DNA of 64,000 bases from Thermoanaerobaculia bacterium (GTDB lineage Bacteria > Acidobacteriota > Thermoanaerobaculia > UBA5066). Positions 1 through 62,231 of this stretch are shown here, piece after piece; position 1 is the first letter of the stretch; each line of letters starts with the position of its first letter. The notes beneath the pieces were generated by a model that saw only the letters and a program-made list of their open reading frames with translations, was not told the DNA's origin and did no database searches. Position numbers and translations under genes: made by a program. The stretch lies in NCBI GenBank assembly GCA_038245905.1, contig JBBRRY010000016.1:15284-79283 (forward strand). The letters run 5' to 3'.

Positions 1-769
1 TCTTCAGAACGAGGAGCTGTCCGTCACCGGCGTCGAATGCCATTGAAAGTGAAGAGAGGATTTCCGGATCAGAAACGGACAGAACATGGCGACCGACCAG
101 GAGAGAAAAGAGAGAAGAAGAGATTTCTTTGAATGGAAGAGAGGGCAACCGCGACGCGGTCGAGTGCGAGCCGGCCTTAGCAGAAATTTCCAGTACTTCC
201 CCCTCTGCGGAGACGTACCGGTAGAGCCCCAGTCTTCTCCATTCCGCGCTCTCCGCCTCGAACGACTGCACGTGGCGAGGCGCGATCACGAGAAGGCGCG
301 CGCCCTCGCCGAACGATTCGAGCAGCTGGTCCCTCACCGTCTCGGGCGTGTGCCGAGTGACGAGCGACCCGTCGTCGGGGCACCGCAGCGTTCCCGCCGA
401 GGCAAACAGGAGGCGCAGCACATCGTGGATCTCGGTCGCGGTCCCGACGGTGGAGCGGGCAGAGCGTCCCGGTGACTTCTGCTCGATCGCGAGCGCGGGC
501 AGGACGTGCTCGATGAGGTCCACGTCCGGGCGCTCGAGACGTTCGAGGTATTGGCGCGCGTACGTCGACATGGATTCGACGAACCGGCGCTGGCCCTCCG
601 CGTAGAGCGTGTCGAAGGCGAGCGAGGATTTCCCGGAGCCGGAAGGGCCCGTGACGACGGTGAGCGCGCCGACGGGAAATGAGCACGTCACGTTCTTCAG
701 GTTGTGCGTGCGCGCGCGCACGACCGTGATCGCGCGCGCGCCCCTCGGGCGCCCGGTCTGCCGCGTCAC
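1..769 (-). CDS. uvrA: Excinuclease ABC subunit A, 5' part (runs off window start)
   Basis: Manual translation (absent from ORF track): ITVVRARTHNLKNV...GPSGSGKSSLAFDTLYAEGQRRFVES.STYARQYL, the UvrA N-terminal signature. Open to position 2; GTG start overlaps the upstream TGA (GTGA). Confidence 0.93.
   Translation of the reverse strand, partial: MTRQTGRPRGARAITVVRARTHNLKNVTCSFPVGALTVVTGPSGSGKSSLAFDTLYAEGQRRFVESMSTYARQYLERLERPDVDLIEHVLPALAIEQKSPGRSARSTVGTATEIHDVLRLLFASAGTLRCPDDGSLVTRHTPETVRDQLLESFGEGARLLVIAPRHVQSFEAESAEWRRLGLYRYVSAEGEVLEISAKAGSHSTASRLPSLPFKEISSSLFSLLVGRHVLSVSDPEILSSLSMAFDAGDGQLLVLK
121..135 (-). repeat. Dispersed CCTTCnAAGAAATC motif, single copy in uvrA
   Basis: Minus strand CATTCAAAGAAATCT within a long purine/pyrimidine tract (about 99-145). 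Confidence 0.6.
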
Positions 770-1353
770 CGCGAGAAAACCGCGAGCTGGTTCATGCCGA
801 AAAGGAACCGACGGTAGAGGACGAGGGCGATGCCCGCGCCTCGGCCCGCGTCCGCGAGCGCCTCGCGCCCGAGCAGCGCCTCGTGCTCGTCGTGCGCGTG
901 GGCCGAGAGAAGCCCCAGCGCCGCGCCGGCCTCGAGCGGCCAGCGTCCCGACGGATGCGGCGTCGTCACGATCAGACGTCCCCCCGGAGACAGGAGAGGC
1001 GCCACACAGGCGAGGACACGAGGCGGGTCCGCGACGTGCTCGAGGACCGCGAGGAAAAGAATTCCTTCGAAGGGCGCCTTCGCCGAGAGCGCGGCCGGAG
1101 CCGCGCCGAGGGCGATGTCCCACTCGTGGAAATCCCCGTCCGGAAAACGCTCCCGCTGGAGCCTCAGAACCTCCGGATCCCGGTCACAGCCGGTGTAAGA
1201 AGGGAGACGCCCCGGAAGATCCGTCAGGCCGCAACCGATGTCGAGGACCCGTGCACCGACCGGGACGTGCGGCAGCGCCGCGGCGAGGCGGGCCGCCCCG
1301 ACGCGCTTCGTGAGCCGGCCATAGAAGGGTGAGGAGGCGGAAGGAGGGCGCAC
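766..1353 (-). CDS. Class I SAM-dependent methyltransferase
   Basis: VLDIGCG motif I, AVLEHV, LSPGGRLIVTTP. Confidence 0.85.
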   Translation of the reverse strand: MRPPSASSPFYGRLTKRVGAARLAAALPHVPVGARVLDIGCGLTDLPGRLPSYTGCDRDPEVLRLQRERFPDGDFHEWDIALGAAPAALSAKAPFEGILFLAVLEHVADPPRVLACVAPLLSPGGRLIVTTPHPSGRWPLEAGAALGLLSAHAHDEHEALLGREALADAGRGAGIALVLYRRFLFGMNQLAVFSR

Positions 1354-1391
1354 GCGGGAGTTTTACACCCTCCACCGTAAGATCGTCCCTC

Positions 1392-3674: not shown

Positions 3675-3679
3675 TTCAA

Positions 3680-10535: not shown

Positions 10536-11660
10536 GTGCAGACCGCGCCCCGAAGCGACGTGACGCGCCGCCTCGCGCGCTGGTATCGCGCACACAAGCG
10601 CGATCTACCATGGCGCCGGACGCGTGACCCGTACGCGATCTGGCTCTCTGAAGTGATGGCGCAGCAGACGACTCTCGAGGTCGTGGTGCCGCGCTGGAAA
10701 CGCTTTCGCCGCCGCTTCCCGAAAGTCGACGCCCTCGCGCGGGCTCCTGAGCGGGCGGTGCTCGCCGAGTGGAGCGGCCTCGGGTATTACGAGCGCGCCC
10801 GAAACCTCCAGCGCGCGGCAAAGGCCGTCGTGGAGGCAGGATCCTTTCCGCGCACGCTCGAGGGCTGGCGCGCACTGCCGGGCGTCGGCGCTTACACGGC
10901 GGCCGCGCTCTCGTCGATCTGCTTCGGCGTCCCCGAGCCGGTCGTGGACGGCAACGTCGTGCGCGTCCTCTGCCGCCTCCACGGCCTCCGGCTCGACCCG
11001 AAGGCGCCCGCGACGCTCGCGAAGGTGCGGTCGCTCGCGCGGCCGCTCGTACCCGCGCGGAATCCAGGCGCCCACAACCAGGCCCTCATGGAGCTAGGCG
11101 CACTCGTGTGCACTCCACGGACCCCACTCTGCGGCGAGTGCCCGCTTCGCCCGCTCTGCCGAGCCGCGGCGCTCGGGACGCCGGAGGCGTTCCCGCGCGC
11201 CGGGAAGCGTCCACCCAAGAAGGCGATCCATCTCGCCGCGGGCCTCGTCCGTAGAGACGGGAGATTTCTTCTCGTTGAAGACCGGGAGATGGTCGACGGC
11301 CAGCTCGTGCCCCCGATGTTTCCGGTTCGCGCTGGGAAACCGTCTGCGAATTCTCTTAGAAGGGGGTGGAAGCGGCTCACGGGTCGCGAGCCTGGCGCGC
11401 TCGAGACCGTGGCGACGATTCGCCATTCGGTGCTCGAAAGGCGCTATCTCGTTTCCCTCTTCACCTTCAAAGAAAATCCCACGTCGCCTTCGCGCTGCCT
11501 GCCACTCGACGCAGGTCGATTCCGTCTCTTCTCTCCGAGCCAGATCTCCCGCCACGCCCACGGCGGCCTCCTGCTCAAGGTGCTCGCGGCGTGGCGGGAG
11601 CACCGTGCCAGGGTCAGACGGGGGCCGGACCGGGGCCCTCCCGGGGCACGCAGACACTGA
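10536..11660 (+). CDS. mutY: A/G-specific adenine glycosylase
   Basis: RDLPWR..DPYAIWLSEVMAQQT, WSGLGYY.RARNL, HhH LPGVGAYTA, VDGNVVRVL, 4Fe-4S CTPRTPLCGECPLRPLC. Start uncertain. Confidence 0.92.
   Translation: MQTAPRSDVTRRLARWYRAHKRDLPWRRTRDPYAIWLSEVMAQQTTLEVVVPRWKRFRRRFPKVDALARAPERAVLAEWSGLGYYERARNLQRAAKAVVEAGSFPRTLEGWRALPGVGAYTAAALSSICFGVPEPVVDGNVVRVLCRLHGLRLDPKAPATLAKVRSLARPLVPARNPGAHNQALMELGALVCTPRTPLCGECPLRPLCRAAALGTPEAFPRAGKRPPKKAIHLAAGLVRRDGRFLLVEDREMVDGQLVPPMFPVRAGKPSANSLRRGWKRLTGREPGALETVATIRHSVLERRYLVSLFTFKENPTSPSRCLPLDAGRFRLFSPSQISRHAHGGLLLKVLAAWREHRARVRRGPDRGPPGARRH
11349..11479. repeat. Inverted motif pair in mutY
   Basis: 11349-11363 (-) CCTTCTAAGAGAATT; 11464-11479 (+) CCTTCAAAGAAAATCC. 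Confidence 0.6.
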
Positions 11661-14178: not shown

Positions 14179-14571
14179 CTATTCCGTCGTCTTGCCGTCG
14201 AAGTGCTCGTTGTCCGCTTCCGCGTCCTTGCGGGTGTGGTGGACGACGCCGTCTCGATGGTTCGGCGGCGCATAGAGCGTATAGAGCTTCAATGGGACAT
14301 TGCCGGTGTTGACGATGTTGTGATTGCTTCCCGCCGGCACAAGCACCGAAAACCCCGCGCTGATCGGGGTATGAACCCCATCGAGAACCGCCTCACCCGT
14401 TCCCTCCTCCACGCGAAAGAACTGGTCGAGCTTGTGGACTTCCATCCCGATCTCTTCCTTGGACTTCAGAGCCATGATGACGAGCTGGCAGCTCTTCGCC
14501 GTGTAAAGCACCCGGCGAAACTCCTCATTCTTGACGGCGATGCTCTCGATGTTCTGGACGAAGCCTTTCAT
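14179..14571 (-). CDS. Cupin domain protein
   Basis: FRRVLYT, EIGMEVH, DQFFRVEEG, VPAGSNHNIVN, LYTLYAPPNH; SD GAGGGAG upstream. Confidence 0.9.
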   Translation of the reverse strand: MKGFVQNIESIAVKNEEFRRVLYTAKSCQLVIMALKSKEEIGMEVHKLDQFFRVEEGTGEAVLDGVHTPISAGFSVLVPAGSNHNIVNTGNVPLKLYTLYAPPNHRDGVVHHTRKDAEADNEHFDGKTTE

Positions 14572-15071
14572 GACGAAAACTCCCTCGTTCGATGATGGCC
14601 CTCTAGCTGATCGTGGACGTCGAACGTAGAGATCGGGATGTACGCAAATCCAGAGACCCGACGGTGATCGTTCTCGTCTGCACATGCGAGGGACGAAGTC
14701 TCGGCGCGACGTAATACGCCCGTCCCTTCCTGAAGCATGACCTTGGAGGGCCGAAAGACGTAATGCTGGACGAGGGCCACTCCGCCTACGCCGAGCGACA
14801 GGAGGAGGGCTAATCCGACGGCGCCCAGCAGCAGCAGCCGCACGAACCCTGCGAGAGAAAGAGTAAGAAGTTCCTCCTCCAGCTCCGGCCGCCCGAGGGC
14901 AGGCTGCGTGGACCCGGGGGATGGCAGGCTCCACGCACTTGCGGCTGGAAGGGGACCGCCGCAATGCCGGCCCAGATCGTGAAAGGGGCTCATGGGATCT
15001 CCCGCGCGCTCACTCCATCAAACGTTCTCGCCATGACGGGGTCAGCGCAAGAGTCGGGCCACGATTCCGGA

Positions 15072-15087
15072 TGGCACGTGTCGTGCT
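15072..15087 (+). promoter_or_regulatory. Sigma-54 -24/-12 promoter
   Basis: TGGCACGTGTCGTGCT (GG-N10-GC), 27 bp before the ATG at 15115. Confidence 0.65.
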
Positions 15088-15114
15088 CCCCAGCACCATG
15101 GAAAGGGGACATCC

Positions 15115-15195
15115 ATGGAAACCATCCTGATCATCCTCGTCGTGGTTCTTCTGCTCGGAGGCGGCGGCTTCTACTGGCGCGGCAGACGAGGGTAG
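15115..15195 (+). CDS. 26-aa membrane microprotein (DUF3309-like)
   Basis: METILIILVVVLLLGGGGFYWRGRRG*, with SD GAAAGGGG, promoter and downstream hairpin. Not in the ORF track. Confidence 0.75.
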   Translation: METILIILVVVLLLGGGGFYWRGRRG

Positions 15196-15253
15196 CCGCG
15201 TGCAAGGCGGACGGACAAGTGCCGCCCGCCTTTCGCAGGCACGCTTTGCAGGA

Positions 15254-15286
15254 GAAGAAGGGGCGCCTTACAGCCGCCCCTTCTTC
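15254..15286. terminator. Hairpin / probable terminator
   Basis: GAAGAAGGGGCG-9 nt-CGCCCCTTCTTC, perfect 12-bp stem. Confidence 0.55.
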
Positions 15287-15432
15287 CCCCCGTCGAACGA
15301 CCGGCGCGGACTCGCCGATGTCGGCCTGGGCTCTCTTCACCTACGCCGCGCGGCGCTCTGTTGCGAGGAACGTTGCGTTCCCCTTGCAAAAACGCATCCG
15401 GGCATAGGGCCGTCCGAAAGAAGGAGGTCTCC

Positions 15433-15526
15433 GTGACGAGAGCCTCCAATCTGGAAAGGCCGTCTCACGTTCGGGCTCGTGGGAATTCCTGTTGAGCTCG
15501 TTTCGGCGGTGAACGCGAAGGATCGC
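15433..15526 (+). pseudogene. ku: Ku (NHEJ) N-terminal remnant
   Basis: SD AAGGAGG plus GTG, then, shifted +1, IWKGRLTFGLVGIPVELVSAV, matching the Ku N-terminus (IWKG.ISFGLV.IPV.L.SA). Similarity ends after about 30 codons. Confidence 0.7.
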
Positions 15527-15560
15527 GGCAGGAGCCCGGAGAGGCTCTGCTCGCTAATCA

Positions 15561-15596
15561 AGATTACAACCTGCAGCTGGACGAGATTACAACCTG
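15561..15596. repeat. 13-bp direct repeat AGATTACAACCTG x2
   Basis: Copies at 15561-15573 and 15584-15596. Confidence 0.85.
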
Positions 15597-15615
15597 TAGA
15601 AGGAAGGAGATTCAA

Positions 15616-15738
15616 ATGGATGGTGCCGGCCGCGGATGCCTTGCTTCACTGATCTCGTGGAAGCTCGGCGGAGGGTTGATCTCGACGATCGTCATCTTCG
15701 TCATCGCGTATGCGCTGTTGGGGCACGTGCACTGTTGA
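15616..15738 (+). CDS. 40-aa membrane microprotein
   Basis: MDGAGRGCLASLISWKLGGGLISTIVIFVIAYALLGHVHC*, with strong SD AAGGAG. Not in the ORF track. Confidence 0.65.
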   Translation: MDGAGRGCLASLISWKLGGGLISTIVIFVIAYALLGHVHC

Positions 15739-15824
15739 GGCCCTCTCTAAACGTCGGCTCTCGACGCTGGTGCCCTGGCGACGAGCCAACTATGAGGTCC
15801 TGATCGGAGGCCCGATTCAGAGCA

Positions 15825-15840
15825 TGGCACACGCGTTGCG
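15825..15840 (+). promoter_or_regulatory. Sigma-54 -24/-12 promoter
   Basis: TGGCACACGCGTTGCG, near-consensus TGGCAC-N5-TTGC. Confidence 0.75.
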
Positions 15841-15862
15841 ATGGCTGGCTCGGGAGGCAGTT

Positions 15863-16198
15863 ATGGAAAGTGTTCTCAACCCCTCGGCTCAGGATGCAGT
15901 ACGGAGGGTCGCTAATGATGCGCGAAAAATCGGCACCGAGTTCAAGAGCGATTTCGATCGCGCCGTCGGCAAGAGTAAGGACTCCGTTGCGGGTCTCGGT
16001 GAAAGTCTGCGCGGCGCGGCGGAAGCCGTGGCGGCGTCCGGACGCGAACTCGGCGAGGAGTACCTGAAACGTGGCCAGAGGCAGGTCTCGCGAACTTCGG
16101 AGCGCGTATCCGCATATGCCGACGACAACACCGCCGCGGTGACGATTGGCGCTTTCGGCGCCGGCCTCCTCGTCGGATATCTCGTAAGCCGTCGTTAG
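15863..16198 (+). CDS. ElaB/YqjD (DUF883)-like tail-anchored protein
   Basis: Helical N-terminus and C-terminal YADDN...AFGAGLLVGYLVSRR; SD GGAGG. Confidence 0.75.
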   Translation: MESVLNPSAQDAVRRVANDARKIGTEFKSDFDRAVGKSKDSVAGLGESLRGAAEAVAASGRELGEEYLKRGQRQVSRTSERVSAYADDNTAAVTIGAFGAGLLVGYLVSRR

Positions 16199-16216
16199 AC
16201 CAGGAAGGAGTCACAA

Positions 16217-16714
16217 ATGAAAACAACAGTAGACGAAACTGAGCCAATCGTAGAAAAACATGCGAACCGGGATCCCATCACCGGCCAGCCAGGGTCCCAT
16301 CCTGTAGGCACGGGCATCGGTTCAGCAAGCGCGGCGGCTGCCGGAGCCGCCGTTGGCGCAGCGGTCGGCGGACCGGTCGGCGCCGTCGTCGGCGCCGTCG
16401 CCGGAGCGGTTGCTGGCGGCGCGGCCGGCCACGCCGCGGGAGAGAAGCTGGATCCGACGGTCGAGACCGCATATTGGCGGAAGAACTACGGGACGCGTCC
16501 CTATTACCGGGAAGACCGCAAGTTCGAGGACCTCGAACCGGCTTATCGATATGGATGGGAGCAGGCGAGCTCCGCACAGGCCGGAAAGCGTTTCGACGAC
16601 GTCGAGCGCGAGCTCGAGCGTACGTGGCCGATTGCTCGCGGAAGAAGCACCGCCGAGTGGAGAGACGTCCGTGACGCCACGCGCGACTCCTGGATTCGGG
16701 TGCGCGGAAGCTGA
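16217..16714 (+). CDS. Glycine-zipper general stress-type protein
   Basis: NRDPITG.PGSHPVGTG, Gly/Ala zipper, YWR..Y..RPY, PAYRYGW; SD AAGGAG. Confidence 0.8.
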   Translation: MKTTVDETEPIVEKHANRDPITGQPGSHPVGTGIGSASAAAAGAAVGAAVGGPVGAVVGAVAGAVAGGAAGHAAGEKLDPTVETAYWRKNYGTRPYYREDRKFEDLEPAYRYGWEQASSAQAGKRFDDVERELERTWPIARGRSTAEWRDVRDATRDSWIRVRGS

Positions 16715-16724
16715 ATGATCGTGA

Positions 16725-16748
16725 GAAGGGGGCCGCCCGGCCCCCTTC
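16725..16748. terminator. Hairpin terminator between convergent genes
   Basis: GAAGGGGGCC-GCCC-GGCCCCCTTC. Confidence 0.65.
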
Positions 16749-16832
16749 GTTCTCCTGACCGGCAGACGTCGCGAACGACGGCACATCTCACCGTCGCCCG
16801 CCCGTACCCCGGTGACCGATGGAGGCGACGCC

Positions 16833-27028: not shown

Positions 27029-28284
27029 GCAGGAGGGCGCGCCCGGTGCCAGCGGGAAGGCGCGAGCAGCGCGCGAGCGGCGGCGCGTGTCCACATCGAA
27101 AAAGACGCCGCGAAATCGGCGAAAGCCACGGGAGGAACTTCCGGTGGATAGCCGAGGCGCCGCCGGAGCGCGGCGATCGAAAGCCACTCGAGGACGAGGG
27201 CGAGTTTTGCTTCGAGTGAAAGAAGGATAAGGAAGGCCAGAAGTGCAACGGGCCGTCCATTCAAAGACAAAACCAGCATGAGCACATCCGAGGCGCCCGC
27301 AAGAATCGCGAGGGTTCCGAGCAAAAGGACCCTCGGACGAAGCCAGAGATCGGCCGCCAGAACGAACGCGCCCTTCGGGCTCTTCGCCGCGATCCGGAGG
27401 AGATCGCCGAGGCCCGTGAAAAGGAGCTTCATGTGCCCACCCAGCCATCGCGCGCGCGAGCCCGACATCGCGCGCGAGCCCGGGACTGGTTCGTCGAACG
27501 CGACGGGCGCCGCGAGAGCGCGGACGCGCACTCCCGACGCCAGGAGCCGGAGGGTCGCTTCGGAGTCCTCGACGGTCGTCGCGGTAGCCACGGCCGGCCC
27601 GGCGTGAAACGCCCGCGGCGAGAAACCCATGGCCTTACCGCGCAGCCGGACGGGCAGGCCTTCGGCATCCCGCGCAAGGTCGTCCTCCAGGGCCTGGGCG
27701 AGAGAGAGCGCCTCGACGCGCGGCGCGCCCGAGGCGGGGACTCCCGCGGGCCGGACCGGAAGCTGGAACGCCTCTGTCCCGACGGGCACGGCGAGATCGC
27801 GGAAAAATCGTTCCGGCAGCCTCATGTCGGCGTCGAACACAAGGATGAAGTCGTAGGCATCCAGCCGGTCGCCCATGCTCGCGGCGAGAAACGCAAGCGC
27901 ATGTCCTTTCGCAGGACCGGGAAGATTCTTCGAAAGGTAAGAGATTCCGTCGCGCGCAAGACGGGCCTGCGCCTCGGGGTCCGGACCGTCCAGGAGGACC
28001 AGAATGTCGACGGCAAAGGAGCTTGCGCTCGCCTCTGCGCCGCCCGCGATCTTCACCTTCGAAGAAATCTCTTTCTCCGACTCTCTCGTCACGTCCGCGG
28101 CGATGTCGCCGACGCGCGCGCCCTCGGCGCGAGCCGGCACGAGCACGAGCAGGCGTGCCGGACGCATGCCCCGCTCCGGCGCGCCGCGCCCTCGCACGAG
28201 GCGCCGCAGCCTCAGGGCCGCGTCGAGCGCGGGCAGCGCTGCCGCGAGGGCCAGCAGGCCGCAGAGGACCGTCGCCTTATCCAC
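27025..28284 (-). CDS. Glycosyltransferase family 2 (membrane)
   Basis: VLVPARAE, KGHAL, VFDAD, TVED, RARW, flanking TM helices. Confidence 0.82.
   Translation of the reverse strand: MDKATVLCGLLALAAALPALDAALRLRRLVRGRGAPERGMRPARLLVLVPARAEGARVGDIAADVTRESEKEISSKVKIAGGAEASASSFAVDILVLLDGPDPEAQARLARDGISYLSKNLPGPAKGHALAFLAASMGDRLDAYDFILVFDADMRLPERFFRDLAVPVGTEAFQLPVRPAGVPASGAPRVEALSLAQALEDDLARDAEGLPVRLRGKAMGFSPRAFHAGPAVATATTVEDSEATLRLLASGVRVRALAAPVAFDEPVPGSRAMSGSRARWLGGHMKLLFTGLGDLLRIAAKSPKGAFVLAADLWLRPRVLLLGTLAILAGASDVLMLVLSLNGRPVALLAFLILLSLEAKLALVLEWLSIAALRRRLGYPPEVPPVAFADFAASFSMWTRAAARALLAPSRWHRARPPA
27923..28070. repeat. Inverted motif pair in the GT2 gene
   Basis: 27923-27937 (-) CCTTTCGAAGAATCT; 28056-28070 (+) CCTTCGAAGAAATCT. 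Confidence 0.65.
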
Positions 28285-28309
28285 GCGGCCTGCATCGTAG
28301 CGCCGAACG

Positions 28310-32351: not shown

Positions 32352-32418
32352 CTTGGTTCCTTTCGGTCTCCCCGTCCGGAGAGCCCGTCGAGCGGATTCA
32401 GAAATTTCGAGAATCCTA

Positions 32419-34200: not shown

Positions 34201-34273
34201 TGAGCCGGCGAGGATAACAGGGGGGCCTTCAGGCAACTCCGGATTCGATCCCTGCCGGCACCTCCCGGGTGGA

Positions 34274-35039: not shown

Positions 35040-35086
35040 GGAAACCTCCATTTCGGGGAACCGAAAAATAATAGACTGCCGGGGCG

Positions 35087-36409: not shown

Positions 36410-36432
36410 CTGGCGGCGCTACACTCCCTTCT

Positions 36433-41315: not shown

Positions 41316-41328
41316 GGTGCCCCGGAGC

Positions 41329-43085: not shown

Positions 43086-43087
43086 CG

Positions 43088-45874: not shown

Positions 45875-45906
45875 CTCATCCTCCTGATGCCGCGCGGGCG
45901 GCCAAA

Positions 45907-45922
45907 TCCCGAACACTCGGTA
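45907..45922 (-). promoter_or_regulatory. Putative TetR operator (pseudopalindrome)
   Basis: Minus strand TACCGAGTGTTCGGGA (CCGA-N4-TCGG) at the predicted transcription start. Confidence 0.5.
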
Positions 45923-45929
45923 TGTTTTG

Positions 45930-45959
45930 ACGATACGAGCGAAGAAAGCGGGCTGTCAA
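45930..45959 (-). promoter_or_regulatory. Sigma-70 promoter of the receptor operon
   Basis: Minus strand TTGACA-18 nt-TATCGT. Confidence 0.65.
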
Positions 45960-46008
45960 GCCGAAACTACCCGGTCGCCTCCGAATGACAGCCCTCAGGG
46001 GAAGGCCT

Positions 46009-47871
46009 CTAGCGGCGCTCCCGGGCCCGCAACCGTCCCCGGTTTGCCAGCTTCTCGGTGAGCTGCAGGTTCCGCCGGATCTGCTCGAGCATCTTGGCCT
46101 CGAGGCCGCGACCCGCCGACACGCGCGTGTCACGCCTTTTGGCGCGGCCGAAGGCCTGGCGCGCGGCGCGCGCGTCCCCCAGCGCGAGGTACGCGAGGCC
46201 GAGGTGCGTGAGTCCCGTGGGCGTCTCGCCCAGGTCCGTGGCGCGGCGCAGGCACTCGACCGCACGATCGTATTCGCGGCGCTTGTAGTGGACCCAACCC
46301 TTGGCGGCGAGAGGAAACTGGCGCATCTCCTTCGGCGAGAGCTTGAGCGAGAGATCGGCGAGCTCGAGGGCCGCGTCGAGGTCCTCCCCCATCTCCGCGA
46401 GAGTCGACGCCCTCTGAAAATAGGCGATCGAGCGCGCGTAGTTGGACTTCACGACGCCGAGCATCTCCTCGGCGACGCGGCTGCCTTCGCGAAATTTCCC
46501 CTCTGCCTTCAGGGCCTCGAGGAGCGTCGTGTACGCCGCCGCCGCGACCATCTCGCCCGGCGCGCGGGAGAGGACCCGGCGTGTCGTGGCGACCGCTTCC
46601 GACGTCCGGCCGACGGCCGAGCACAGGAGCGCGTACGCGATGAGAAGCGTCGGGTTCTCCGGGTCGAGCTTCAGCGCGCGCCGATACAGCGCCATCGCCT
46701 TCTGCGGATCGCGCGGCGCGGCCGTCTCCGCTTTCCGCGCGAGCACGGCCGCCTCGCCGACGACCTTCGGGAGCGCACGCGCGCCCGAGGGCGCGAGCAG
46801 CTTCGACGCCTCCTGGTATTCGATACGGTTGGGGTTCAGCTCGAGCGCCGCCTGGAACCGCTCGGCCGCCTTCTGCGTCCATCCGCGGTCGAGATAGCAG
46901 ATGCCGAGCTGATAGAGGGCGTCCTCGTCGTCGGGATCGAGGCGCGCGGCCTTTTGAAAAGCCTCCGTGGCTTCCGTGAGGCGGCCGCGCTCGTACGCGA
47001 TCGTGCCGAGGAGCGAGTACGCCTGCGCGTTCTCGTCGATCGCGACGGCCTTCTTGAGGAACGTCTCCGCCCTGGCGAGCTGCCCCTTGAGCGCAAAGAG
47101 CGCGCCGAGCGTGAAATAGGGCAGAAACGCGTCCGGCTTGACCGCGACCGCTTCCTTGAGAACCTCGAGCGCGTGGTCGGTGCGGCCGGCTTCGTTCTCG
47201 AGGACACCCGTGTACACGAGCGCGTCGAAGTGCTTCGGCTCCTTCGCGAGAACCGCCCGCAGCATCGAGGCGGCGCGATCCGTCTCGCCCTCGTTGAAAT
47301 ACGTCTCGCCGAGGAAGAACGCGAGATCGGCGTTCCCCCTGTCGAGCCGGTAGGCCTCCTCGAGCACCTTGACCGCCTTGTCCGGGTCGAGCGCGTAGAA
47401 CGCGAACTCCGCATCGGAGAGGAGTCCCTTGAAGCGCTCCCGCCGCTCTCCCGAAAAGCCGCCGAGCATCCTCTCCTTGCGCTCGAGGAAACGTTCGCGC
47501 TTCTCCATCGCGGTCATGTGATGGTCGACGCGCGTCTCCCAGAGGTCGAGCAGCTCTTCCTCGACGAGAAGCCCCTTTCGCTCGAGCAGGTCCTTGAGGG
47601 CAAGCAGCCCCGTCTGGGCGACGAAGCCGTTCTTCTCCTGCCGATTCAGGGCTTCGAGCAGCATCTTGAGGGTCTCGGCGCTTCGCTTGACGATCTCCTC
47701 GAGGACGCTGACGCGCTCGAGAAGGTGCTCGTCCATCGAGACGCCCTCTTCCTGCTGCGTGCCCTCTTCGTACGCTTCAGAGGCTCCCGAGACGACGAGA
47801 AGCTTGCTCTGGCACTTGATGCAGTATTCACGCTCGAGCTCGTTCGAGGCCCCGCAGACCTGGCAGATCAC
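46009..47871 (-). CDS. TPR protein with N-terminal zinc ribbon and coiled coil
   Basis: CQVC..CIKC followed by many TPR-like repeats. GTGA coupling to hbd. Confidence 0.85.
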
Positions 47872-48794: not shown

Positions 48795-49727
48795 TCAGGA
48801 GGCGGCGAGCACGAGGCGCGGCTCGCGAGAGACAGCGGCGTCGAGCGCCACTCCGATCCCGGCGAGAGACGAGAGTCCCCAGAGGAGCGGGCCGAGGACC
48901 GGAAGGAGAGACAGCAGCCCGAGGAGAAGAACGCCGGCCGCGAGCGCCGTCGGATCGCCGAACAGGAGGCTTCCGCGCGGAGCGCCCCTCGTGATCCGCC
49001 GCCCGAGCGCGACGAAAACGACCGTGAGGCCGAAGATCTTGGCGGCCACGAGCGCTGCGAGAAGAATGGCGCCCACGGCGAGCGCGGGCCGGGCCGGGAG
49101 GATGGACAGCGCGAAGGCCACGGAAAAGAACGCGGTCAGGATCGCGGTCGCGCCGAGCGCAGCCAGGAACGCGAGGCGGCTCGGAACATCGTCCGCGGCC
49201 CGGAGGAGCCGGCGGGGCGCGAGAAAGAGGAGACCGAAGGAGACCACGAGCCAGGCGAAGAGGAGGAAGAGCCTAAGCGAAAGGACCAGAGTCGAGGACT
49301 TGCCACGTGTCAGCGGCGAGGTTTCGAGCTCAGACAGGACCGCCGCCTCGAGCGCCGAGATCGTGCGGACACGTCCGCGCACCTGCGGGTGGCCGTCGGA
49401 ATTTTCTTCGAAGGTGAGGGAACCGCCAACCGCCAGCACGTCCCCGTCGATGACGGCGCCACGGAGGATCGTCGCGTCCGCGCCAAGGAGAACGAGATCG
49501 CGGCGAATGCGGCCCGACACAGTCGCGTGGGCTGCTCCGACGAGAACCGCGCTCCCTCCCAATTCTCCTTCCAAGAAAATCCTCTTCCCGAGAACCACGA
49601 GATCCCCGGAACGGGTCGTTCCCTTCGGAATGAGAATGGAGGCCTCTTCCGCGCGCGCAGATTGGGCGACCATCAGAAGCAGAATGAATATCGCCCGATT
49701 ACCCCGCGTGCGAATCCAGCGGTTCAT
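48795..49727 (-). CDS. Membrane protein with bactofilin-like (polymer-forming) beta-helix repeats
   Basis: Repeats GDLVVLG / RDLVLLG / GDVLAVGG, then about 5 TM helices. Confidence 0.7.
   Translation of the reverse strand: MNRWIRTRGNRAIFILLLMVAQSARAEEASILIPKGTTRSGDLVVLGKRIFLEGELGGSAVLVGAAHATVSGRIRRDLVLLGADATILRGAVIDGDVLAVGGSLTFEENSDGHPQVRGRVRTISALEAAVLSELETSPLTRGKSSTLVLSLRLFLLFAWLVVSFGLLFLAPRRLLRAADDVPSRLAFLAALGATAILTAFFSVAFALSILPARPALAVGAILLAALVAAKIFGLTVVFVALGRRITRGAPRGSLLFGDPTALAAGVLLLGLLSLLPVLGPLLWGLSSLAGIGVALDAAVSREPRLVLAAS
49399..49582. repeat. Inverted motif pair in the bactofilin-like gene
   Basis: 49399-49414 (-) CCTTCGAAGAAAATTC; 49567-49582 (+) CCTTCCAAGAAAATCC. Confidence 0.65.
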
Positions 49728-49740
49728 CGGGGAGCCCGCG

Positions 49741-50277
49741 TCAGCCGCGGGGCGTGCCCGCGACGGCGCGCGCGAGACGCGACGGACGCCGGGACAGCCG
49801 CCGTGCCAGGATGGCAAACGTGGCGCCCGAGGCGAGAAGGGCGCCCGCAAGAGCCGCGCGGGCGCCCGGCGTGCCGGACAGCACTGCCCCGAGGGCGTCG
49901 GCGAGGGTGGGGATCGCAGCGAGCAGCGCAGGCAGCCCGGCCGTCGTGCCAGCCGCCATGACCCGCGCCCACATCTCGAGAGCCGTCTGGGGTCCGAGCG
50001 ACCAGAGAGGGGCGAGAAAGACGACCAAGCTGGCCGTCAGGAGTCCTCCGGCCGCCAGCGCAGGCGCCCTCCAGGCTCGAGCGCGACGGACCTCCCAGGG
50101 GGCAAAGGGGCGATGGGCCATTACCCGGGCGGTCAAGTCGGCCTCCCAGCCAGGTGCAGGAGAAGCCATAACACATTCATCCAGAATGGTTTCCAGGCGA
50201 CGATCCAGCTCCAGCTCCTCCATCGAAGTCGGATTAACGTCCGGGACGTCAGGGACGTGGGTGGCGCTATCGTTCAT
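49741..50277 (-). CDS. Putative anti-sigma membrane protein
   Basis: Directly downstream of the ECF sigma gene; PAPGWEADLTARVM followed by TM helices. Confidence 0.6.
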   Translation of the reverse strand: MNDSATHVPDVPDVNPTSMEELELDRRLETILDECVMASPAPGWEADLTARVMAHRPFAPWEVRRARAWRAPALAAGGLLTASLVVFLAPLWSLGPQTALEMWARVMAAGTTAGLPALLAAIPTLADALGAVLSGTPGARAALAGALLASGATFAILARRLSRRPSRLARAVAGTPRG

Positions 50278-56639: not shown

Positions 56640-57371
56640 GTGATCCGGTTCGAACGGGCCGTCAAGCGCTACGGCGACAAGACGGCCCTTTCGGACTTCT
56701 CGCTCGAGATTCCCGCTGGCGCGCTCTTTGCTCTCGTCGGCCCGAACGGCGCCGGCAAGACGACCGCGATCGGCCTCCTCACCGGCCTCCTCTCCGCGAC
56801 GTCCGGCCGGACCTTCCTCGCGGGGATCGACGTCGCGCGCGACCCCGTGGCTGCGAAGGCGAGACTCGGGTTCGTGCCGGACCGTCCCTATCTCTGGCCG
56901 AAGTGGACACCGCGCGAGACCCTGCGATTCGTGGGAGCCGTCTTCGGCCGGCGCGGGCCGGGTCTGGAGGACCGGATCGACGCGGAGCTAGCCGCCTTCG
57001 ACTTGACGGAGTTTTCGGGCCAGCGCAACGAGACTCTCTCCCACGGCACGAGGCAGCGCGTGGCCCTCGCGCAGGCCTTCCTGCACGACCCGGGGGTTCT
57101 CGTCCTCGACGAGCCGATGGTCGGCCTCGATCCGCTCGCTCAGCGCGGCCTGACGGAACGCCTGAAGGACCATGCGGCCGCGGGCGCAGCGGTCCTCCTC
57201 ACGACCCATCAGCTCGCGCTCGCCGAGGAAGTCGCGACCGAAGTCGGCCTCCTCGTCGACGGGCGGCTCGTCGCTCGCGGGAACCCGAAGCGCCTCGTGA
57301 CGGCCGCCGGCATGACGGGCACGCTGTCGGAGATCTTCTTCAACCTCGCGCGCGGAACGCCGCGCCCGTGA
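56640..57371 (+). CDS. ABC transporter ATP-binding protein
   Basis: GPNGAGKTT, LSHGTRQR, DEPMVGLDP. Confidence 0.92.
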   Translation: MIRFERAVKRYGDKTALSDFSLEIPAGALFALVGPNGAGKTTAIGLLTGLLSATSGRTFLAGIDVARDPVAAKARLGFVPDRPYLWPKWTPRETLRFVGAVFGRRGPGLEDRIDAELAAFDLTEFSGQRNETLSHGTRQRVALAQAFLHDPGVLVLDEPMVGLDPLAQRGLTERLKDHAAAGAAVLLTTHQLALAEEVATEVGLLVDGRLVARGNPKRLVTAAGMTGTLSEIFFNLARGTPRP

Positions 57372-59020
57372 ACCGGACGTTCCGCGCGAACACGCTTCGC
57401 GCCTCCGGAAGGGCCCTCCTCGCGGGCGACGCCCGCGGGCGCCTCGTCGCGATGGCGGGGCTCTTCGCGCTTCTCATGTTTGCCGGCCTCGAGATGGCCG
57501 GCCTCGAAGGCGCCCTCCGGGCGTCCAAGGCCGCGCTCCGGGAACTGCCCGAGATCCGGCCCGCGTTCCTCCTCGAACGGCTCCTCGGAGGCGCCTTCGC
57601 GGCCGCCCTCGTTCTCGGATTTCTCGGCTCCCTCACGACGGCAATCGGTACGCTCTTCCTCTCCGAGGAGCTCGCCTCGCTCTCGACGCTCCCGTTCCCC
57701 CATCGCCGCCTCGTGCTCCGGCAAGCGATTCTCACCCTCGCCCTCGCCTCCGCGCCCACGCTCCTTCTCGCGGCGCCTGCGCTCCTCGTCGCGGCCGAAG
57801 CGAGCGTGCATCCCCTTCTCGCGTTCTTTTCCTGCCTGCTCCCTCTCGCGGGCGTCATGCTCCTCGCGGGGGCGGCGGGAATCGCGGCCGCGATTCTCTT
57901 CGTACGCGTCGTGCCCCCACGGCGCGCCCGCCTGCTCGCGGCCTTTCTCACCGCGACCGGCCTCGCGGTCGCCCTTCTCGGCTTTCGCGCCGCCCGGCCG
58001 GAGCGCCTCCTCGATCCCCTCGAAGCGCTTTCCGTCGTGACCCGGCTGGGAACCGCACCTCTCTCCCCACCCGGCCTCAGCCCCGCGGCGTGGGCCGCCC
58101 GCGCCGCCACCCGCGGACTCTTCGGAGACGCTGGAGGACTCCTGCCAGGCGCCGCGCTCTTCCTCTCCGGGCTCGTCGCGTTCCTCCTCGTGCCTCGAGC
58201 GCTCTCGCGCCTGCACCTGCACGTATTGCGCGAGGCGGGGTCCGGAGTCGCGCGAGCGGCGGGCGACGAGCGTCAGAGCCCCGAAGCCCGCTCGCTCGCA
58301 GCCGTGCTCCTCCGCGCGGAAGTTGCGACGCTCCTCCGCGACGCCTCGACGCCCGCGCAGCTCGGATCGCTGGCCGCCGTTTTCCTCCTCGACTTGATGA
58401 ACGTGCGGTTCCTGCCGGGTGGGGATTCCTCCGCGCGCGACCTCGTGGCCGGACTCCAGACGGGACTGTCGTTGTTTCTCGTCTCGGCCCTCTCGCTGCG
58501 CTTCGCGTACCCTTCCGTCTCGTCCGACGGCCGCGCCGCGCTGATTCTCAGGGCCCTTCCGCTGGATCCGCGGCGGCAGCTCCTCGCGCGTTGGGTCGTC
58601 CGTGCCGTTCCCGCCGCCCTGATCGCTCTGGTTCTCACCGGAGCGAGCCTCCTCGCCCTCCGGCCCGTGGGCACGACGTCCGCCGTCGCGCTCCTCGCCG
58701 CTCTCGCGGGTGGTCTCGCGATTCCCGCTCTCCACGTCGGACTCGGAGGGGTCTTCCCGCGCTACGACGCCCCCAATGCCGTAGCGGCCGCCCTGTCGGC
58801 CGGCGGCGTTTTCGCGCTCGTCTTCTCGACGGGCCTCGCGCTGCTTTCGACGATCGTCGTCTCCGGCGAGCTGAGAATCCTCCTGGGATCCCTTCTGCGA
58901 CAGAACCTGCCGCAGGGTCCGCTCCTTTTGCTGTTTTTCTGCGCCGCCGCCGCCGCGGCGGCCGTTCCGATGGTTCTGGCTGGCCAATCCCTCGAAAGGA
59001 GCGACCTGTCCATCGGGTGA
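57368..59020 (+). CDS. ABC-2-type permease
   Basis: Multi-TM protein coupled by GTGA overlap to the ATPase; RFAYPSVS.DG motif. Confidence 0.78.
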   Translation: MNRTFRANTLRASGRALLAGDARGRLVAMAGLFALLMFAGLEMAGLEGALRASKAALRELPEIRPAFLLERLLGGAFAAALVLGFLGSLTTAIGTLFLSEELASLSTLPFPHRRLVLRQAILTLALASAPTLLLAAPALLVAAEASVHPLLAFFSCLLPLAGVMLLAGAAGIAAAILFVRVVPPRRARLLAAFLTATGLAVALLGFRAARPERLLDPLEALSVVTRLGTAPLSPPGLSPAAWAARAATRGLFGDAGGLLPGAALFLSGLVAFLLVPRALSRLHLHVLREAGSGVARAAGDERQSPEARSLAAVLLRAEVATLLRDASTPAQLGSLAAVFLLDLMNVRFLPGGDSSARDLVAGLQTGLSLFLVSALSLRFAYPSVSSDGRAALILRALPLDPRRQLLARWVVRAVPAALIALVLTGASLLALRPVGTTSAVALLAALAGGLAIPALHVGLGGVFPRYDAPNAVAAALSAGGVFALVFSTGLALLSTIVVSGELRILLGSLLRQNLPQGPLLLLFFCAAAAAAAVPMVLAGQSLERSDLSIG

Positions 59021-59062
59021 CCTCTCAGAAGATTTTCTTAGAGGGGTGAACGAGCGAGGCGC

Positions 59063-59974
59063 TCAGTCGACTGGGTTCAGCGGCAGCTCTCCGCGGGCGA
59101 AACGCGCGATCTCTTCGCACGCGAGACGCGCCATCGAGAGGCGCGTCTCGTATGTCGCGGAGCCCAGGTGCGGAAGAAGGACGACGCCGGGCAGGGAAAG
59201 CAAGCCGGGGTGAATTGCCGGTTCGTGCTGGTACACGTCGAGACCCGCGCCCAGAAGATGCTTCGAACGAAGGGTCGCGACGAGGGCCTCTTCATCGACG
59301 ATGGGCCCGCGCGAGGTGTTGACGAGGATCGCGCCCTCTTTCATTCGCAGAAATTCTCTCTCTCCGAATCTCCCTCGCGTCTCATCCGTCAACGGAGCGT
59401 GAATGGACAACACATTCACTCTCAAAAGAAATTCTCTGAATTCCTCTTCAGACCCGTCGCGATCGAAGGAGACCACGTGCATGCCGAACGCCTCGCCCCG
59501 GCGTGCGACGGCGCGGCCGATGCGGCCCATGCCGTAGATACCGAGCGTCTTGCCCGCGAGGGAGACGCCGAGGAGCTCCTTCGGCTTCCACCCCTCCCAC
59601 GCCCCCGAACGCGCGAGCGCCTCGCCCTCGCGCAGCCGCCGCGCCACCGCGAGGATCAGGGCCCAGGCGAGGTCCGCCGTCGCCTCCGTAAGGACGTCGG
59701 GAGTGTTCGTCACGAGGACCCCGCGGGCGCGGCACGCGGCGAGGTCGACGTGGTCGACACCAACCGAGTGGCTCGCGACGATTCGCACGCGCGGCGCCGC
59801 CGCGAGCACGGCCTCCGTGACGCGTTCAGCGGGCGTCGGCAGGAGCGCCTCGGCCTCCGCGAGGAGCGGCCATTCGAAGGCCGGCAAGCCGCCGGTGCCG
59901 GTCCAGACCTCGTGGTCGGAAAGAAGCTCGGTCGTGGAGGGCTCGACGAGGGGCTGTCCGACGAAGACCTTCAC
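59063..59974 (-). CDS. D-2-hydroxyacid dehydrogenase (glyoxylate reductase-like)
   Basis: TNTPDVLT, GMGRIG, NTSRG, LDVY, LPHLGSAT. Confidence 0.9.
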   Translation of the reverse strand: MKVFVGQPLVEPSTTELLSDHEVWTGTGGLPAFEWPLLAEAEALLPTPAERVTEAVLAAAPRVRIVASHSVGVDHVDLAACRARGVLVTNTPDVLTEATADLAWALILAVARRLREGEALARSGAWEGWKPKELLGVSLAGKTLGIYGMGRIGRAVARRGEAFGMHVVSFDRDGSEEEFREFLLRVNVLSIHAPLTDETRGRFGEREFLRMKEGAILVNTSRGPIVDEEALVATLRSKHLLGAGLDVYQHEPAIHPGLLSLPGVVLLPHLGSATYETRLSMARLACEEIARFARGELPLNPVD

Positions 59975-60144
59975 GGCGCCTTGAACGGCCGCACGAGAAG
60001 CCAGCCCGCGAAAAAGACGCCGCCTCCCGCGAAGAACATCCGCTCCTCGTACCTGAGGTCGTCACGCAGGAGGCCCACCGCGAGCCCCAACCCCACGAGG
60101 ACGATGCCGACGAGCTGCAATCCCCGCCCCATCACGAACCTCAC
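59971..60144 (-). CDS. Small two-TM membrane protein
   Basis: GRGLQLVGIVLVGLGL...FFAGWLL; GTGA overlaps at both ends. Confidence 0.7.
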   Translation of the reverse strand: MRFVMGRGLQLVGIVLVGLGLAVGLLRDDLRYEERMFFAGGGVFFAGWLLVRPFKAP

Positions 60145-62231
60145 TCCAGCGCCCCTGGCGGCCGCGCGGCGCGCGCGCTCTCCCGCACACGCACGGACAC
60201 GAGCCGGTGGTCTTGCTCGGTGCGGTCGAGGATCTCCATCCCTCCGAGCACGCGCCCAAAGACCGTGTATCCGCCGTCGAGATGCCGCTGCGGCGAGAGC
60301 GCGACGAACCACTGCGATCCTCCCGTGTCGGGCCCTGAGAGCGCCATCCCGACCGCGCCCCTCTCGTACCGGACGGCGTTGATCTCGTCGCGGATCGCGT
60401 AGCCCGGGCCGCCGCTCCCGTCTCCGCGGGGGTCGCCGGTCTGAACGACGAAGTCGGGCACGACACGATGGATCACGAGCCCGTCGAAGAAGCGCCTCGC
60501 GGCCAACGTCCTAAAACTCTCGACCGTCATCGGGGCCTCCTCGGCGAGGAGCTCCATCCGGATCGTCCCCAGCGACGTCACGATCTCCGCCTCGAACGCC
60601 GATTCGTTCGCCGCGCGCGCGAGGCGATCGTAGTCCTCGCGCGAAAGCCGCGTCGCCGCCGGGATCGGCCGGAACGAATCGGCGGCTCCTCCGTACTTCG
60701 CGACGAGAAGCCGCCTCGCCTTCTCCCGCGTGACCGCATTGGCGTCGTTCACGTGCCCCGCGACGAGGGCGCGTCCGGCCTCGCCGCGCGCCGCCGCGGC
60801 GTCGAGAGCACCGACCGTGAAGTCCGGCTCGCCCGCCGCGAACGCCTTTTCGAAGGCGGACGACCAGACTCGCTTCAGTTCCTCGCTGCCCTTCTCGAGA
60901 AGCGGCGCGGCCGCGTCGAGAGCCGTGTCGCGGACCGAGGGGTCGCGGTCGATCAGGCCTGCCAGCAGCCATGACGAACGGTTCACAGTATTTTTCTTCG
61001 AAAGAGATGAGAGGGCCGCGGCACGGACACGGGGAGCCCGGTCGGCGAGCACCTCGGTCGCCAGCGCACCAGGGGGTCCGTCACCTTCGAAGAACTCCAA
61101 GGCTTCGGCCGCGCCGAGCCGCTGTTCGAGCGTCGCGCCCGCGAGGGCCGCGTCGAGCCGCGCCGCCGCAGCTTTCGGCGCTCGCGCCACGTCGAGGCGC
61201 GTCAGGCTCACGAGGGCCGTCTGCCCCCTCCATCCCTTTCGAAGCAGGTTCTCTTCGAGTACCGCACGCGCCGCGGGCGAATCGGGCAGGACCCCGAGCA
61301 AACGCAGGGCGGCGATCGCCACACCGGGAAGAGAGTCATTTGCTCGGAGAAGAGAGACGGCTCGGGCGCTCGGGGCGAGCGCCTCGTCTCCCGCAAAGGC
61401 GCTTTTCTTAGAAAGTGAATGCAGAGCGGTCAGAGCTTGCACGGCGACCGATACGTCGGTGCTCGCCGCGAGCCTAACGAGGTCCGGAGCGCTTTCTCCA
61501 TCCTCGAGGATTCCGAGGCCGCGTGCCGCCCAGGAAACGACGACCGGTTCGTCATCCCCCCTTCCAAGCACCGCGCGAAGCGCGGACGCCGCCTCCGGCT
61601 GAGGCTTCCGCGCCAATGAATAGACGACCGCGCGCCTCAGCTCCGGAGCAGGATTCTCCTCTCCGAAAACCGAAAGCAGGGCCGCCACCGTCCGCGCCTC
61701 CGGCTTGCGGAACATCGCGAGCGCGCTCGCGGCGCGCGTCGACCCGGCGGCCTCTCGCCTTCCGAGCCCAGCGAGGAGCGCGTCCGTCGCGTCCTTCCCG
61801 CCGATCTTCCCGAGCGCCTCGGCCGCATTCGCCGCCGTTTCCGGATCGGAATCGCCGAGAGCGGCGAAGAGGAATCGAACGAGACGTGCGTCACCGCAGA
61901 CCCCCGCGCCGAACGCCGCCGCGCGCCGAACGCCCGCATCCGGATCCCGGAGAAGGACCGATAGTGTGATCGCGGCGGCGGGATCCCGGAGCCGCCCGAC
62001 GGCAAGCGCCGTCTTCGCGCGCAGCCACGGATCGGGCGAGGCCGCCGCGCGCCCGGCAAGGAGCGGGTCGTACGCGCGGCGATCCTCCATCCGGAGAAGT
62101 GCGGCGAATCCACCGAGGCGTTCGCGATAGGTACCCCTCGGCGGGCCCTTCTCCGCGCCGAAGGAAAAACAGCCGGCGAGGGCGAGAGCGGCGAGGCAGA
62201 TCGCGAACGCGTGACGGTTGCGGCGCGACAT
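60141..62231 (-). CDS. Lipoprotein with HEAT repeats and C-terminal cyclophilin-type PPIase
   Basis: LAGC lipobox, HEAT-like repeats, HRVVPDFVVQTGDP, GSQWF, YTVFGRV. Confidence 0.88.
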   Translation of the reverse strand: MSRRNRHAFAICLAALALAGCFSFGAEKGPPRGTYRERLGGFAALLRMEDRRAYDPLLAGRAAASPDPWLRAKTALAVGRLRDPAAAITLSVLLRDPDAGVRRAAAFGAGVCGDARLVRFLFAALGDSDPETAANAAEALGKIGGKDATDALLAGLGRREAAGSTRAASALAMFRKPEARTVAALLSVFGEENPAPELRRAVVYSLARKPQPEAASALRAVLGRGDDEPVVVSWAARGLGILEDGESAPDLVRLAASTDVSVAVQALTALHSLSKKSAFAGDEALAPSARAVSLLRANDSLPGVAIAALRLLGVLPDSPAARAVLEENLLRKGWRGQTALVSLTRLDVARAPKAAAARLDAALAGATLEQRLGAAEALEFFEGDGPPGALATEVLADRAPRVRAAALSSLSKKNTVNRSSWLLAGLIDRDPSVRDTALDAAAPLLEKGSEELKRVWSSAFEKAFAAGEPDFTVGALDAAAARGEAGRALVAGHVNDANAVTREKARRLLVAKYGGAADSFRPIPAATRLSREDYDRLARAANESAFEAEIVTSLGTIRMELLAEEAPMTVESFRTLAARRFFDGLVIHRVVPDFVVQTGDPRGDGSGGPGYAIRDEINAVRYERGAVGMALSGPDTGGSQWFVALSPQRHLDGGYTVFGRVLGGMEILDRTEQDHRLVSVRVRESARAARPPGALE

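Follow-up and report, generated by a model that had tools for sequence, protein, structure and literature searches.

The subject of this report is a stretch of 64,000 nucleotides (hereafter the window, C16:15284-79283) from a Thermoanaerobaculia genome, G000, of 3,797,265 bp in 113 contigs with 67.8% G+C, and a short AT-rich motif that recurs in it. We found that the motif is one arm of a two-armed AT-rich signal, several hundred copies of which are carried by one genus (g1, the genus of G000) of GC-rich sediment and soil bacteria. Its arms form a DNA-level signal, built in place mostly by point substitution, paired in one polarity and conserved at orthologous places. The reading that best fits these observations is that of a lineage-specific two-armed DNA recognition signal, kept either by selection or by drive.

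A paired AT-rich signal laid over genes

The loose core of the motif, TTCNNNGAAA, was counted 24 times in the window, whose G+C ranges from 61 to 71%, compared with 6.05 ± 3.0 times in 100 dinucleotide shuffles, none of which reached 24. Using a 26-bp matrix built genome-wide by iteration, with cut-offs of 18 bits for the genome and 12 bits for the window, we obtained 609 non-overlapping arms in the 3.8-Mb genome and 21 in the window. An earlier note, made from the window alone, had listed the motif at 19 places; all of them matched on the strand it gave with at least 11.9 bits, which bears out the recurrence, and 17 reached at least 20 bits, the other two being 59419(+), with 18.7 bits, and 1058(-), with only 11.9. 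Three arms of at least 12 bits, at 27212(-), 59348(+) and 61090(+), were additional to that list. The extended consensus of an arm is cCCTCTTcACCTTC[T/A/G]AAGAAAtCTTCTCTTC, G-poor on one strand, and one strand of each arm is nearly devoid of G across 40-55 nt. The 12-mer CCTTCAAAGAAA is present in 44 copies in G000, where base composition leads to an estimate of about 0.04, and CTTCNAAGAAA in 156 copies, the free base N being T in 77, A in 46, G in 28 and C in 5. A reversed-genome control gave 178 matches of at least 18 bits to the arm matrix, a number that is inflated because the arm is nearly mirror-symmetric, and this control was therefore not used as a null. No Rfam family (Rfam 15, gathering score) matched in the window (0 matches), and among the papers listed on repeats in this class, or on a DNA uptake sequence in Acidobacteria, no description of the element was found.

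According to a crude codon-usage scorer, which called 3,153 genes (92% coding) in G000, 428 of the 609 arms (70%) lie in genes, 222 in sense and 206 in antisense orientation and evenly along gene length, leaving 181 arms intergenic. As a null, synonymous codons were shuffled within each gene, so that protein sequence and codon usage were both kept. The 411 coding matches of at least 18 bits compared with 56-71 in five such shuffles, and the 278 of at least 24 bits with 12-18, an excess of 6 to 18 times. Since the shuffle preserves the proteins, this excess indicates that the signal resides in the DNA and not in the proteins. The earlier note had argued the same from copies read in different frames and on both strands, and it holds genome-wide, with arms in each of the six frames. 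Further information came from the free base N, which is T in 100 of the 181 intergenic arms; in the two frames in which T gives TAA or TAG, the count falls to 5 of 106 arms and 6 of 63. Thus, T is avoided where a stop would arise, which indicates that the arms are translated and that T is the base preferred by the DNA signal.

Pairing of the arms is strongly polarized. Among neighbours within 400 bp in G000, 186 were in minus-plus and 15 in plus-minus order, with 22 plus-plus and 30 minus-minus; as a minor observation, both same-strand classes are commoner than the wrong-polarity one. The six window pairs that the earlier note had described as minus followed by plus are all so arranged (Table 1), and the same polarity prevails throughout the genome, with tails pointing outward and centre spacings of 28-313 bp, mostly 70-150 bp. 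A partner of at least 12 bits stood on the expected side of 318 of the 416 arms with at least 24 bits, and on the wrong side of 13; about three quarters (76%) of the strong arms are thus paired, in one polarity only. Whichever strand is read, a pair presents a purine-rich tail, an arm, native DNA, an arm and a pyrimidine-rich tail. Of the 186 pairs, 125 lie wholly in genes, 37 are wholly intergenic and 24 straddle a gene border. We found no excess of minus-plus neighbours between 320 bp and 10 kb (G000 only) and no helical phasing of the spacings, as no period of 2.5-20 bp reached the threshold; there was a weak excess in the centre spacings modulo 3 (76, 56 and 54). The two arms of a pair resembled each other no more than arms taken at random did (24.62 versus 24.50 ± 0.25 of 58 positions, in agreement with a per-column test), which favours reading of the sequence over base pairing of arm with arm, and no covariation between them was detected. 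The possibility that the inner DNA is itself special was rejected, its G+C and fold energy being only marginally off those of nearby controls: inner segments of coding pairs folded at -0.378 versus -0.365 kcal/nt (p = 0.046), and for intergenic pairs the difference had p = 0.10.

Conservation was followed from 27 to 47 kb of the window in four relatives with approximately 71-88% DNA identity to G000. Of the 26 arms (at least 18 bits) of these relatives, 25 coincide with an arm of G000; in the other direction, each aligning relative scores at least 15 bits at the places of 6 to 8 of the 9 G000 arms, and the single arm of the glycosyltransferase (GT2) gene at 27202..27227 is present in weaker form (11.6-16.1 bits) at the same place in three. 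Spacing at the orthologous N-terminal pair of the AMP-binding ligase gene is 59-95 bp in the relatives. When the four relatives were pooled with the ProS loci, the 13-bp core showed 86.6% identity (653/754), compared with 79.8% (15,243/19,097) in the coding flanks and 79.2% in the rest of the arm; no p-value is attached to this difference because the rows are related genomes. In ProS, the rare codon ATT was kept in 18 of 18 aligned g1 genomes, and CTT and AGA in most of them, and third positions neighbouring the kept codons vary.

Comparison across related genera made the recruitment of codons directly readable. At arm 1 of MutY, Leu-Arg-Arg is encoded by CTC CGG CGG in g9, by CTT CGA AGG in G072 and by CTT AGA AGG in g1, with CTA CGG GCC (Leu-Arg-Ala) in g12 and CTT CGA AAA (Leu-Arg-Lys) in G165, a member of the sister genus g10. 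Arm 2 of MutY approaches the consensus in grades across genera without any change in length, and arm 2 of ProS forms a similar stepwise series within one codon of length. The ProS arms occupy the same codons, with a little decay, in the 17 g1 sequences aligned in full, the 18th (G006) being broken, and are absent from 11 outgroup loci. They are also absent in g9, g11, g12 and G072, where the sequence is GC-rich and differs in length by at most one codon; G165 has only the head and core of arm 2, and two outgroup families are of equal length at arm 1 and 3-5 codons shorter at arm 2. In the ligase, outgroup homologues have similar peptides where the N-terminal arms sit; compared with paralogues, the protein is longer by about 12-20 residues at the C-terminal arm, and the peptide encoded by that arm is tandemly duplicated in G011. 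The left arm of the GT2 pair is present in four of four aligned genomes, and the right arm in G000 and G004 but deleted in G013 and G015. The uvrA arm (129) lies in an insertion of about 48 bp, in a variable linker, found only in G000 and absent from G015, G165, G072, G157 and G065. Overall, the arms sit at poorly conserved residues, and these alignments point to substitution, partly synonymous and towards rare AT-rich codons against the GC bias of the genome, as the main route, with indels at the tails. The contention of the earlier note that the motif had rewritten housekeeping genes therefore stands for MutY and ProS, whose rewritten codons were afterwards conserved across the species related to G000; of the two alternatives it had raised, lineage-specific substitution was seen at both MutY arms and at ProS arm 2, and insertion at the UvrA arm. 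Beside the tail of the N-terminal ligase pair (window 39850-39890), three relatives have an extra GC-rich coding palindrome of about 30 bp that G000 lacks.

Distribution along the genome and among lineages

The 609 arms group into 356 loci, which are separated on average by 7.5 kb within a contig and occur about once per 7.5-10.7 kb. Gaps between loci had a coefficient of variation of 1.25, compared with 1.12 ± 0.07 when loci were placed at random. Arm density varied 27-fold among the contigs with a length of at least 30 kb, from 0.13 to 3.55 per 10 kb (chi-square 170, 37 degrees of freedom), while contig G+C differed little (0.666-0.685; Spearman correlation with arm density -0.32, p = 0.048), and density was unrelated to tetranucleotide distance in the same contigs. 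C18, the contig poorest in arms, consists of core DNA whose synteny extends to five relatives. This regional pattern possibly reflects an effect of chromosomal domains. The contigs of contrasting density are C18, C20, C3 and C10 on one side and C14, C24, C4 and C1 on the other.

Genes hold 0.12 arms per kb, and intergenic DNA is 4-6 times richer, with 0.75 per kb in tandem spacers, 0.64 in convergent and 0.49 in divergent ones. The arms are blind to transcription: unpaired arms are divided into 36 sense and 28 antisense, and the tails of unpaired intergenic arms face gene starts in 17 cases and gene ends in 18. The 32 genes whose starts face intergenic pairs, recA included, appeared ordinary by eye, with no obvious regulator among them, although no Pfam scan of this set was made. 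A strong pair occupies the divergent spacer 87 bp upstream of recA (G000:C4:88808-90661). Paralogues that read as Ser/Thr protein kinases have a pair of arms, with a spacing of 93 bp, at one and the same position in the kinase domain (C24:27688-27781 and C25:29583-29676 in G000), and at G165:C1:953-975 kb such kinase paralogues form a tandem gene array with a pair in every copy.

With regard to the lineages carrying the signal, the 12-mer with N had 106-351 copies in 19 of 19 g1 genomes and 0-5 in 12 genomes of two sister families; two of these 12 (G019 and G024) are unpublished, and the result stands on the other 10. The near-closed relative G011 has 238 motif places. When 251 genomes of the class were scanned (a sample that includes the unpublished G192, with one copy), the 10-mer TTCTAAGAAA was enriched in 13 of 13 g1 genomes (63-225 copies), weakly in G165 (25) and strongly in G176 (132), a genome of another family; it was near the control level in nearly all others, G108, G184 and G157 showing a small excess (8-14). 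Within the family, every genome searched from g1 (12 genomes) had 112-263 copies of CTTCNAAGAAA and every one from g10 (8 genomes) had 5-51 (controls 0-5); the 21 genomes searched from eight further genera had 0-8. The g10 genome G165 has the same heads, cores and minus-plus pairs as g1, the latter mostly 70-176 bp apart. It prefers a different core, with N = G in 28 of 51 copies compared with 28 of 156 in G000, and its tails appear poorer in CT, by our reading of the few arms printed. The arms are a clear DNA marker of the lineage in metagenomes. G176 was rejected as the source of the element, its copies belonging to a different, intergenic mosaic repeat with only an 11-base core in common. 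That repeat is a fixed unit of about 30 bp, with the 11-base core, set between long GC-rich palindromes, and many contig ends are assembly breaks caused by its mosaic arrays. For this core, the scans confine the signal to g1 and g10, leaving aside the unrelated repeat of G176.

What may read the arms, and rival explanations

Judging from sequence, we put forward, tentatively and with somewhat less than even confidence, that a lineage-specific factor binds both arms cooperatively at a two-armed recognition site in duplex DNA. Each locus would be a composite site made of two inverted arms of about 26-40 bp with their tails outward, each arm running from a head rich in pyrimidines through the core CTTC-N-AAGAAA to a tail rich in CT, and the two being separated by 30-300 bp of unrelated native DNA. 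The factor, probably a protein, would hold the two arms together as a dimer or tetramer and might loop or wrap the DNA between them, and the complex could serve chromosome architecture or insulation, control of recombination, or the marking of DNA as self. A long-lasting directional pressure would have created the arms, and purifying pressure would keep them. A more specific proposal, possible but doubtful, is that the pairs are sites of an undescribed bacterial chromatin or genome-marking system, whose factor would clamp two arms and some 100 bp at about 350 places per chromosome, for example as bidirectional boundary or anchor elements, under a pressure strong enough to recode essential genes over the history of two genera. 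If a factor does read these sites, they would be a natural second, non-protein code over hundreds of genes, held by selection or drive, and would represent a novel kind of chromosome-organising site or else an uptake signal with two arms. In any case, the arms put rare AT-rich codons and low-complexity peptides into conserved enzymes. Several points weigh against cooperative binding. About one strong arm in four stands unpaired. The spacing, at 28-313 bp and without helical periodicity, is too loose for a rigid complex, and so is its variation between orthologous pairs (59-95 bp). No reader gene was identified, and binding is postulated from the DNA. For a protein site, such drawn-out CT tails of low complexity are unusual, and we are not aware of any architectural protein in bacteria whose two-armed sites number in the hundreds and fall mostly inside genes. 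Finally, the stepwise mutational origin, the different core of the sister genus and the equal orientations would fit a self-propagating signal of the uptake type equally well.

In such an uptake-type signal for self-recognition, which we rank second and regard as rather unlikely, the competence machinery would prefer arm-bearing DNA, molecular drive would spread the arms and the pair would be a peculiarity of the receptor. PMC2817400 describes uptake signal sequences of Pasteurellaceae and DNA uptake sequences of Neisseriaceae (USS/DUS) as arising by mutation and recombination, present in both orientations, under-represented in genes, spread more evenly than random and often forming dyad pairs between genes, as predicted terminators. 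The arms have nearly all population-genetic hallmarks of USS/DUS described in PMC2817400: they are a short, lineage-specific, over-represented motif of hundreds of copies, equally common in both orientations, with a stepwise origin by point mutation rather than insertion; they are denser between genes and, within genes, are written at tolerant positions (stops avoided, residues poorly conserved); they differ between related lineages, as the core preferred by the sister genus illustrates; and dyad pairs are common. The same comparison also brings out differences, since here near-obligate pairs (76%) with a native spacer of 30-300 bp and one fixed polarity are the rule inside genes too, and not only between genes as for USS/DUS dyads; the arms are longer, with low-complexity tails; loci are roughly 10 times sparser than the USS/DUS counts of the same paper; and their mildly clustered placement, with 27-fold differences among contigs, contrasts with the even spread of USS/DUS (PMC2817400). 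Genes for ComEC, DprA and PilM are present, but PilM is also present in arm-less genera and the competence machinery therefore does not discriminate. To our knowledge, natural transformation has not been studied in this phylum. Among the competence genes there is a weak lead to the reader, a secreted or periplasmic ComEA-like protein with two HHH_3 domains and a Ser/Lys-rich linker (G000:C12:35120-35794, minus), whose gene has one arm inside and another at its start. This two-domain form was found in 10 of 12 g1 and 5 of 8 g10 genomes, and also in the arm-less G262, G264 and G267, but not in the g1 genomes G009 and G017; other genera have single-domain ComEA only, the two-domain form being limited to a part of the family that includes g1 and g10. 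Its match to the motif, with arm-less carriers and two g1 genomes without it, is imperfect, and we did not retain it as the two-armed receptor.

Four further explanations were each given little weight. An old, decayed miniature mobile element, such as a miniature inverted-repeat transposable element (MITE), a doublet of repetitive extragenic palindromes (REPIN) or a Rickettsia palindromic element (RPE), inserted into genes in frame, would account for the UvrA insertion, for the GT2 right arm present in two genomes and absent from two, and for the residues added and duplicated at the ligase C-terminus, and the pair size of about 90-370 bp is within the MITE range; nevertheless, we give it only a slight chance. 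At MutY arms 1 and 2 and at ProS arm 2, ancestral codons gave way stepwise, one for one or within one codon, to those of the arm; ProS arm 1 has the same length as in other genera, and there is very little turnover between species. Between the arms lies the native gene: in the ligase pair, AMP-binding genes of unrelated bacteria match the inner DNA and nothing matches the arms, and in both ProS and the ligase the residues between the arms align with outgroup proteins. There is no signal of target-site duplication, as the N bases of partners tend to be equal rather than complementary, and no larger arm-bounded or autonomous element: the lack of a minus-plus excess beyond 320 bp is accompanied by ordinary genes between distant pairs in G000, five translated examples of which include NUDIX-like, ComEA-like and glutamine synthetase-like genes and, by reading, no transposase. 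The judgement of the earlier note that these are not MITE ends is thereby upheld. REP elements, bacterial interspersed mosaic elements (BIME) and REPINs are extragenic, each unit is a hairpin, the spacer of a doublet is part of the element and a gene for a Y1 transposase (the REP-associated tyrosine transposase, RAYT) accompanies them. The pairs resemble them as genome-wide short repeats in inverted doublets of similar overall size and differ in that 70% of the arms are in genes, the spacer is native gene sequence and PF01797 (Y1_Tnp) had no match in G000 (96.4% complete), the same search being positive in 6 of the 14 control genomes. An RPE is inserted as an entire element of 100-150 bp; like RPEs and in-frame MITEs, the arms are repeats translated within essential genes, but most arms examined replace codons stepwise around ancestral inner DNA. 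A non-B DNA element without a reader, forming a triplex or cruciform that acts on supercoiling, replication or recombination, is suggested by the polypurine/polypyrimidine tract almost free of G on one strand, by the near mirror symmetry around AAGAAA seen in the reversed-genome matches and by the long dyad that the arms form; we hold it to be improbable from the sequence, as the core is conserved in sequence and not in composition alone, no covariation of partners maintains a cruciform stem, and the tails are poorly conserved and, in the few sister-genus arms we read, less CT-rich. The same dyad might act in RNA, the arms closing a long hairpin next to a U-rich tract and serving as a bidirectional terminator or processing site when translation is absent: on both strands the fixed polarity yields a 5' purine arm, a spacer and a 3' pyrimidine arm with a U/C tail, arms are enriched between genes, and a few of the 25 intergenic pairs printed enclose, by eye, GC-rich hairpins. 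Partner arms show no compensatory variation and no Rfam match, unpaired arms have no strand bias, most pairs (125 of 186 being in genes) stand in the middle of essential genes, spacers of up to about 300 nt would be poor terminator loops, and gene ends are not preferred (0.64 per kb at convergent ends, 0.49 at divergent starts), so that a terminator-type hairpin (TRIT-like) was rejected and an RNA-level role in general appears quite improbable. Intragenic invertons, in which the arms would be recombinase sites and the inner DNA would flip, share with the pairs the short intragenic segments flanked by inverted repeats. They are a very improbable explanation: one consensus recurs at hundreds of loci, all aligned genomes have the inner segments, which are native and conserved coding sequence, in a single orientation, and centre spacings have only the weak modulo-3 excess. 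No strand-changing joint was seen at a pair among the 15 joints listed, out of 347 from four metagenome runs over window 27000-46999, in contigs that drop rare variants; a skip of 136 bp (38861-38998) in two of the runs has sides of only 24-25 letters and ends off the arms. The over-represented words HIP1 (of cyanobacteria), Chi, KOPS and matS, some of them skewed with replication, also lie over coding sequence, but as single words of 8-13 bp, unlike arms of 26-40 bp working in inverted pairs.

Arms of the window

Table 1. Arms found in the window, with their genes, scores and centre spacings.
Feature	Position	Strand	Location	Score or centre spacing
Single arm	119..144	-	uvrA, N-terminal part	34.0 bits
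Weak arm-like match, doubtful member	1050..1080	-		11.9 bits
Pair	11347-11372, 11455-11480	minus, plus	MutY-like gene 10536-11660(+)	113 bp
Single arm	27202..27227	-	GT2 gene 27025-28284(-)	23.1 bits
Pair	27920-27945, 28047-28072	minus, plus	GT2 gene	132 bp
Pair	33136-33161, 33190-33215	minus, plus	proS 32419-34200(-), editing domain	59 bp
Pair	38780-38805, 38940-38965	minus, plus	AMP-binding ligase 38770-40347(-), C-terminus	165 bp
Pair	39886-39911, 39976-40001	minus, plus	AMP-binding ligase 38770-40347(-), N-terminal half	95 bp
Pair	49398-49423, 49558-49583	minus, plus	Open reading frame without Pfam family, 48795-50036(-)	165 bp
Arm	59029..59054	-	Between convergent genes 57368-59020(+) and 59063-59974(-)	
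Two arms	59333-59358, 59410-59435	+	2-hydroxyacid dehydrogenase gene	26.9 bits, 18.7 bits
Pair (seventh of the window)	60988-61013, 61075-61100	minus, plus	HEAT-repeat/cyclophilin gene 60141-62231(-)	92 bp
Two arms, mutually not in paired polarity	61227-61252, 61399-61424	plus, minus	HEAT-repeat/cyclophilin gene	20.1 bits, 24.8 bits

The two plus arms of the 2-hydroxyacid dehydrogenase gene are possible distant partners of the minus arm between the convergent genes (Table 1). Most gene labels of the earlier note were supported by Pfam, namely ProS, the AMP-binding ligase, the MutY-like HhH-GPD glycosylase and the GT2, but the gene at 48795-50036, which it had called bactofilin-like, had no Pfam match; the uvrA label rests on reading of the translated sequence. 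The same note had remarked that an accessory island at 14-24 kb was free of arms. This carries little weight, as the arm-free stretch measures 15.7 kb compared with a mean locus spacing of 7.5 kb. Window 14200-16800 has the lowest G+C of the window (61.5%) and almost no DNA match in five relatives, and the part from 16.8 to 24.5 kb is mostly syntenic in relatives (G015, G004).

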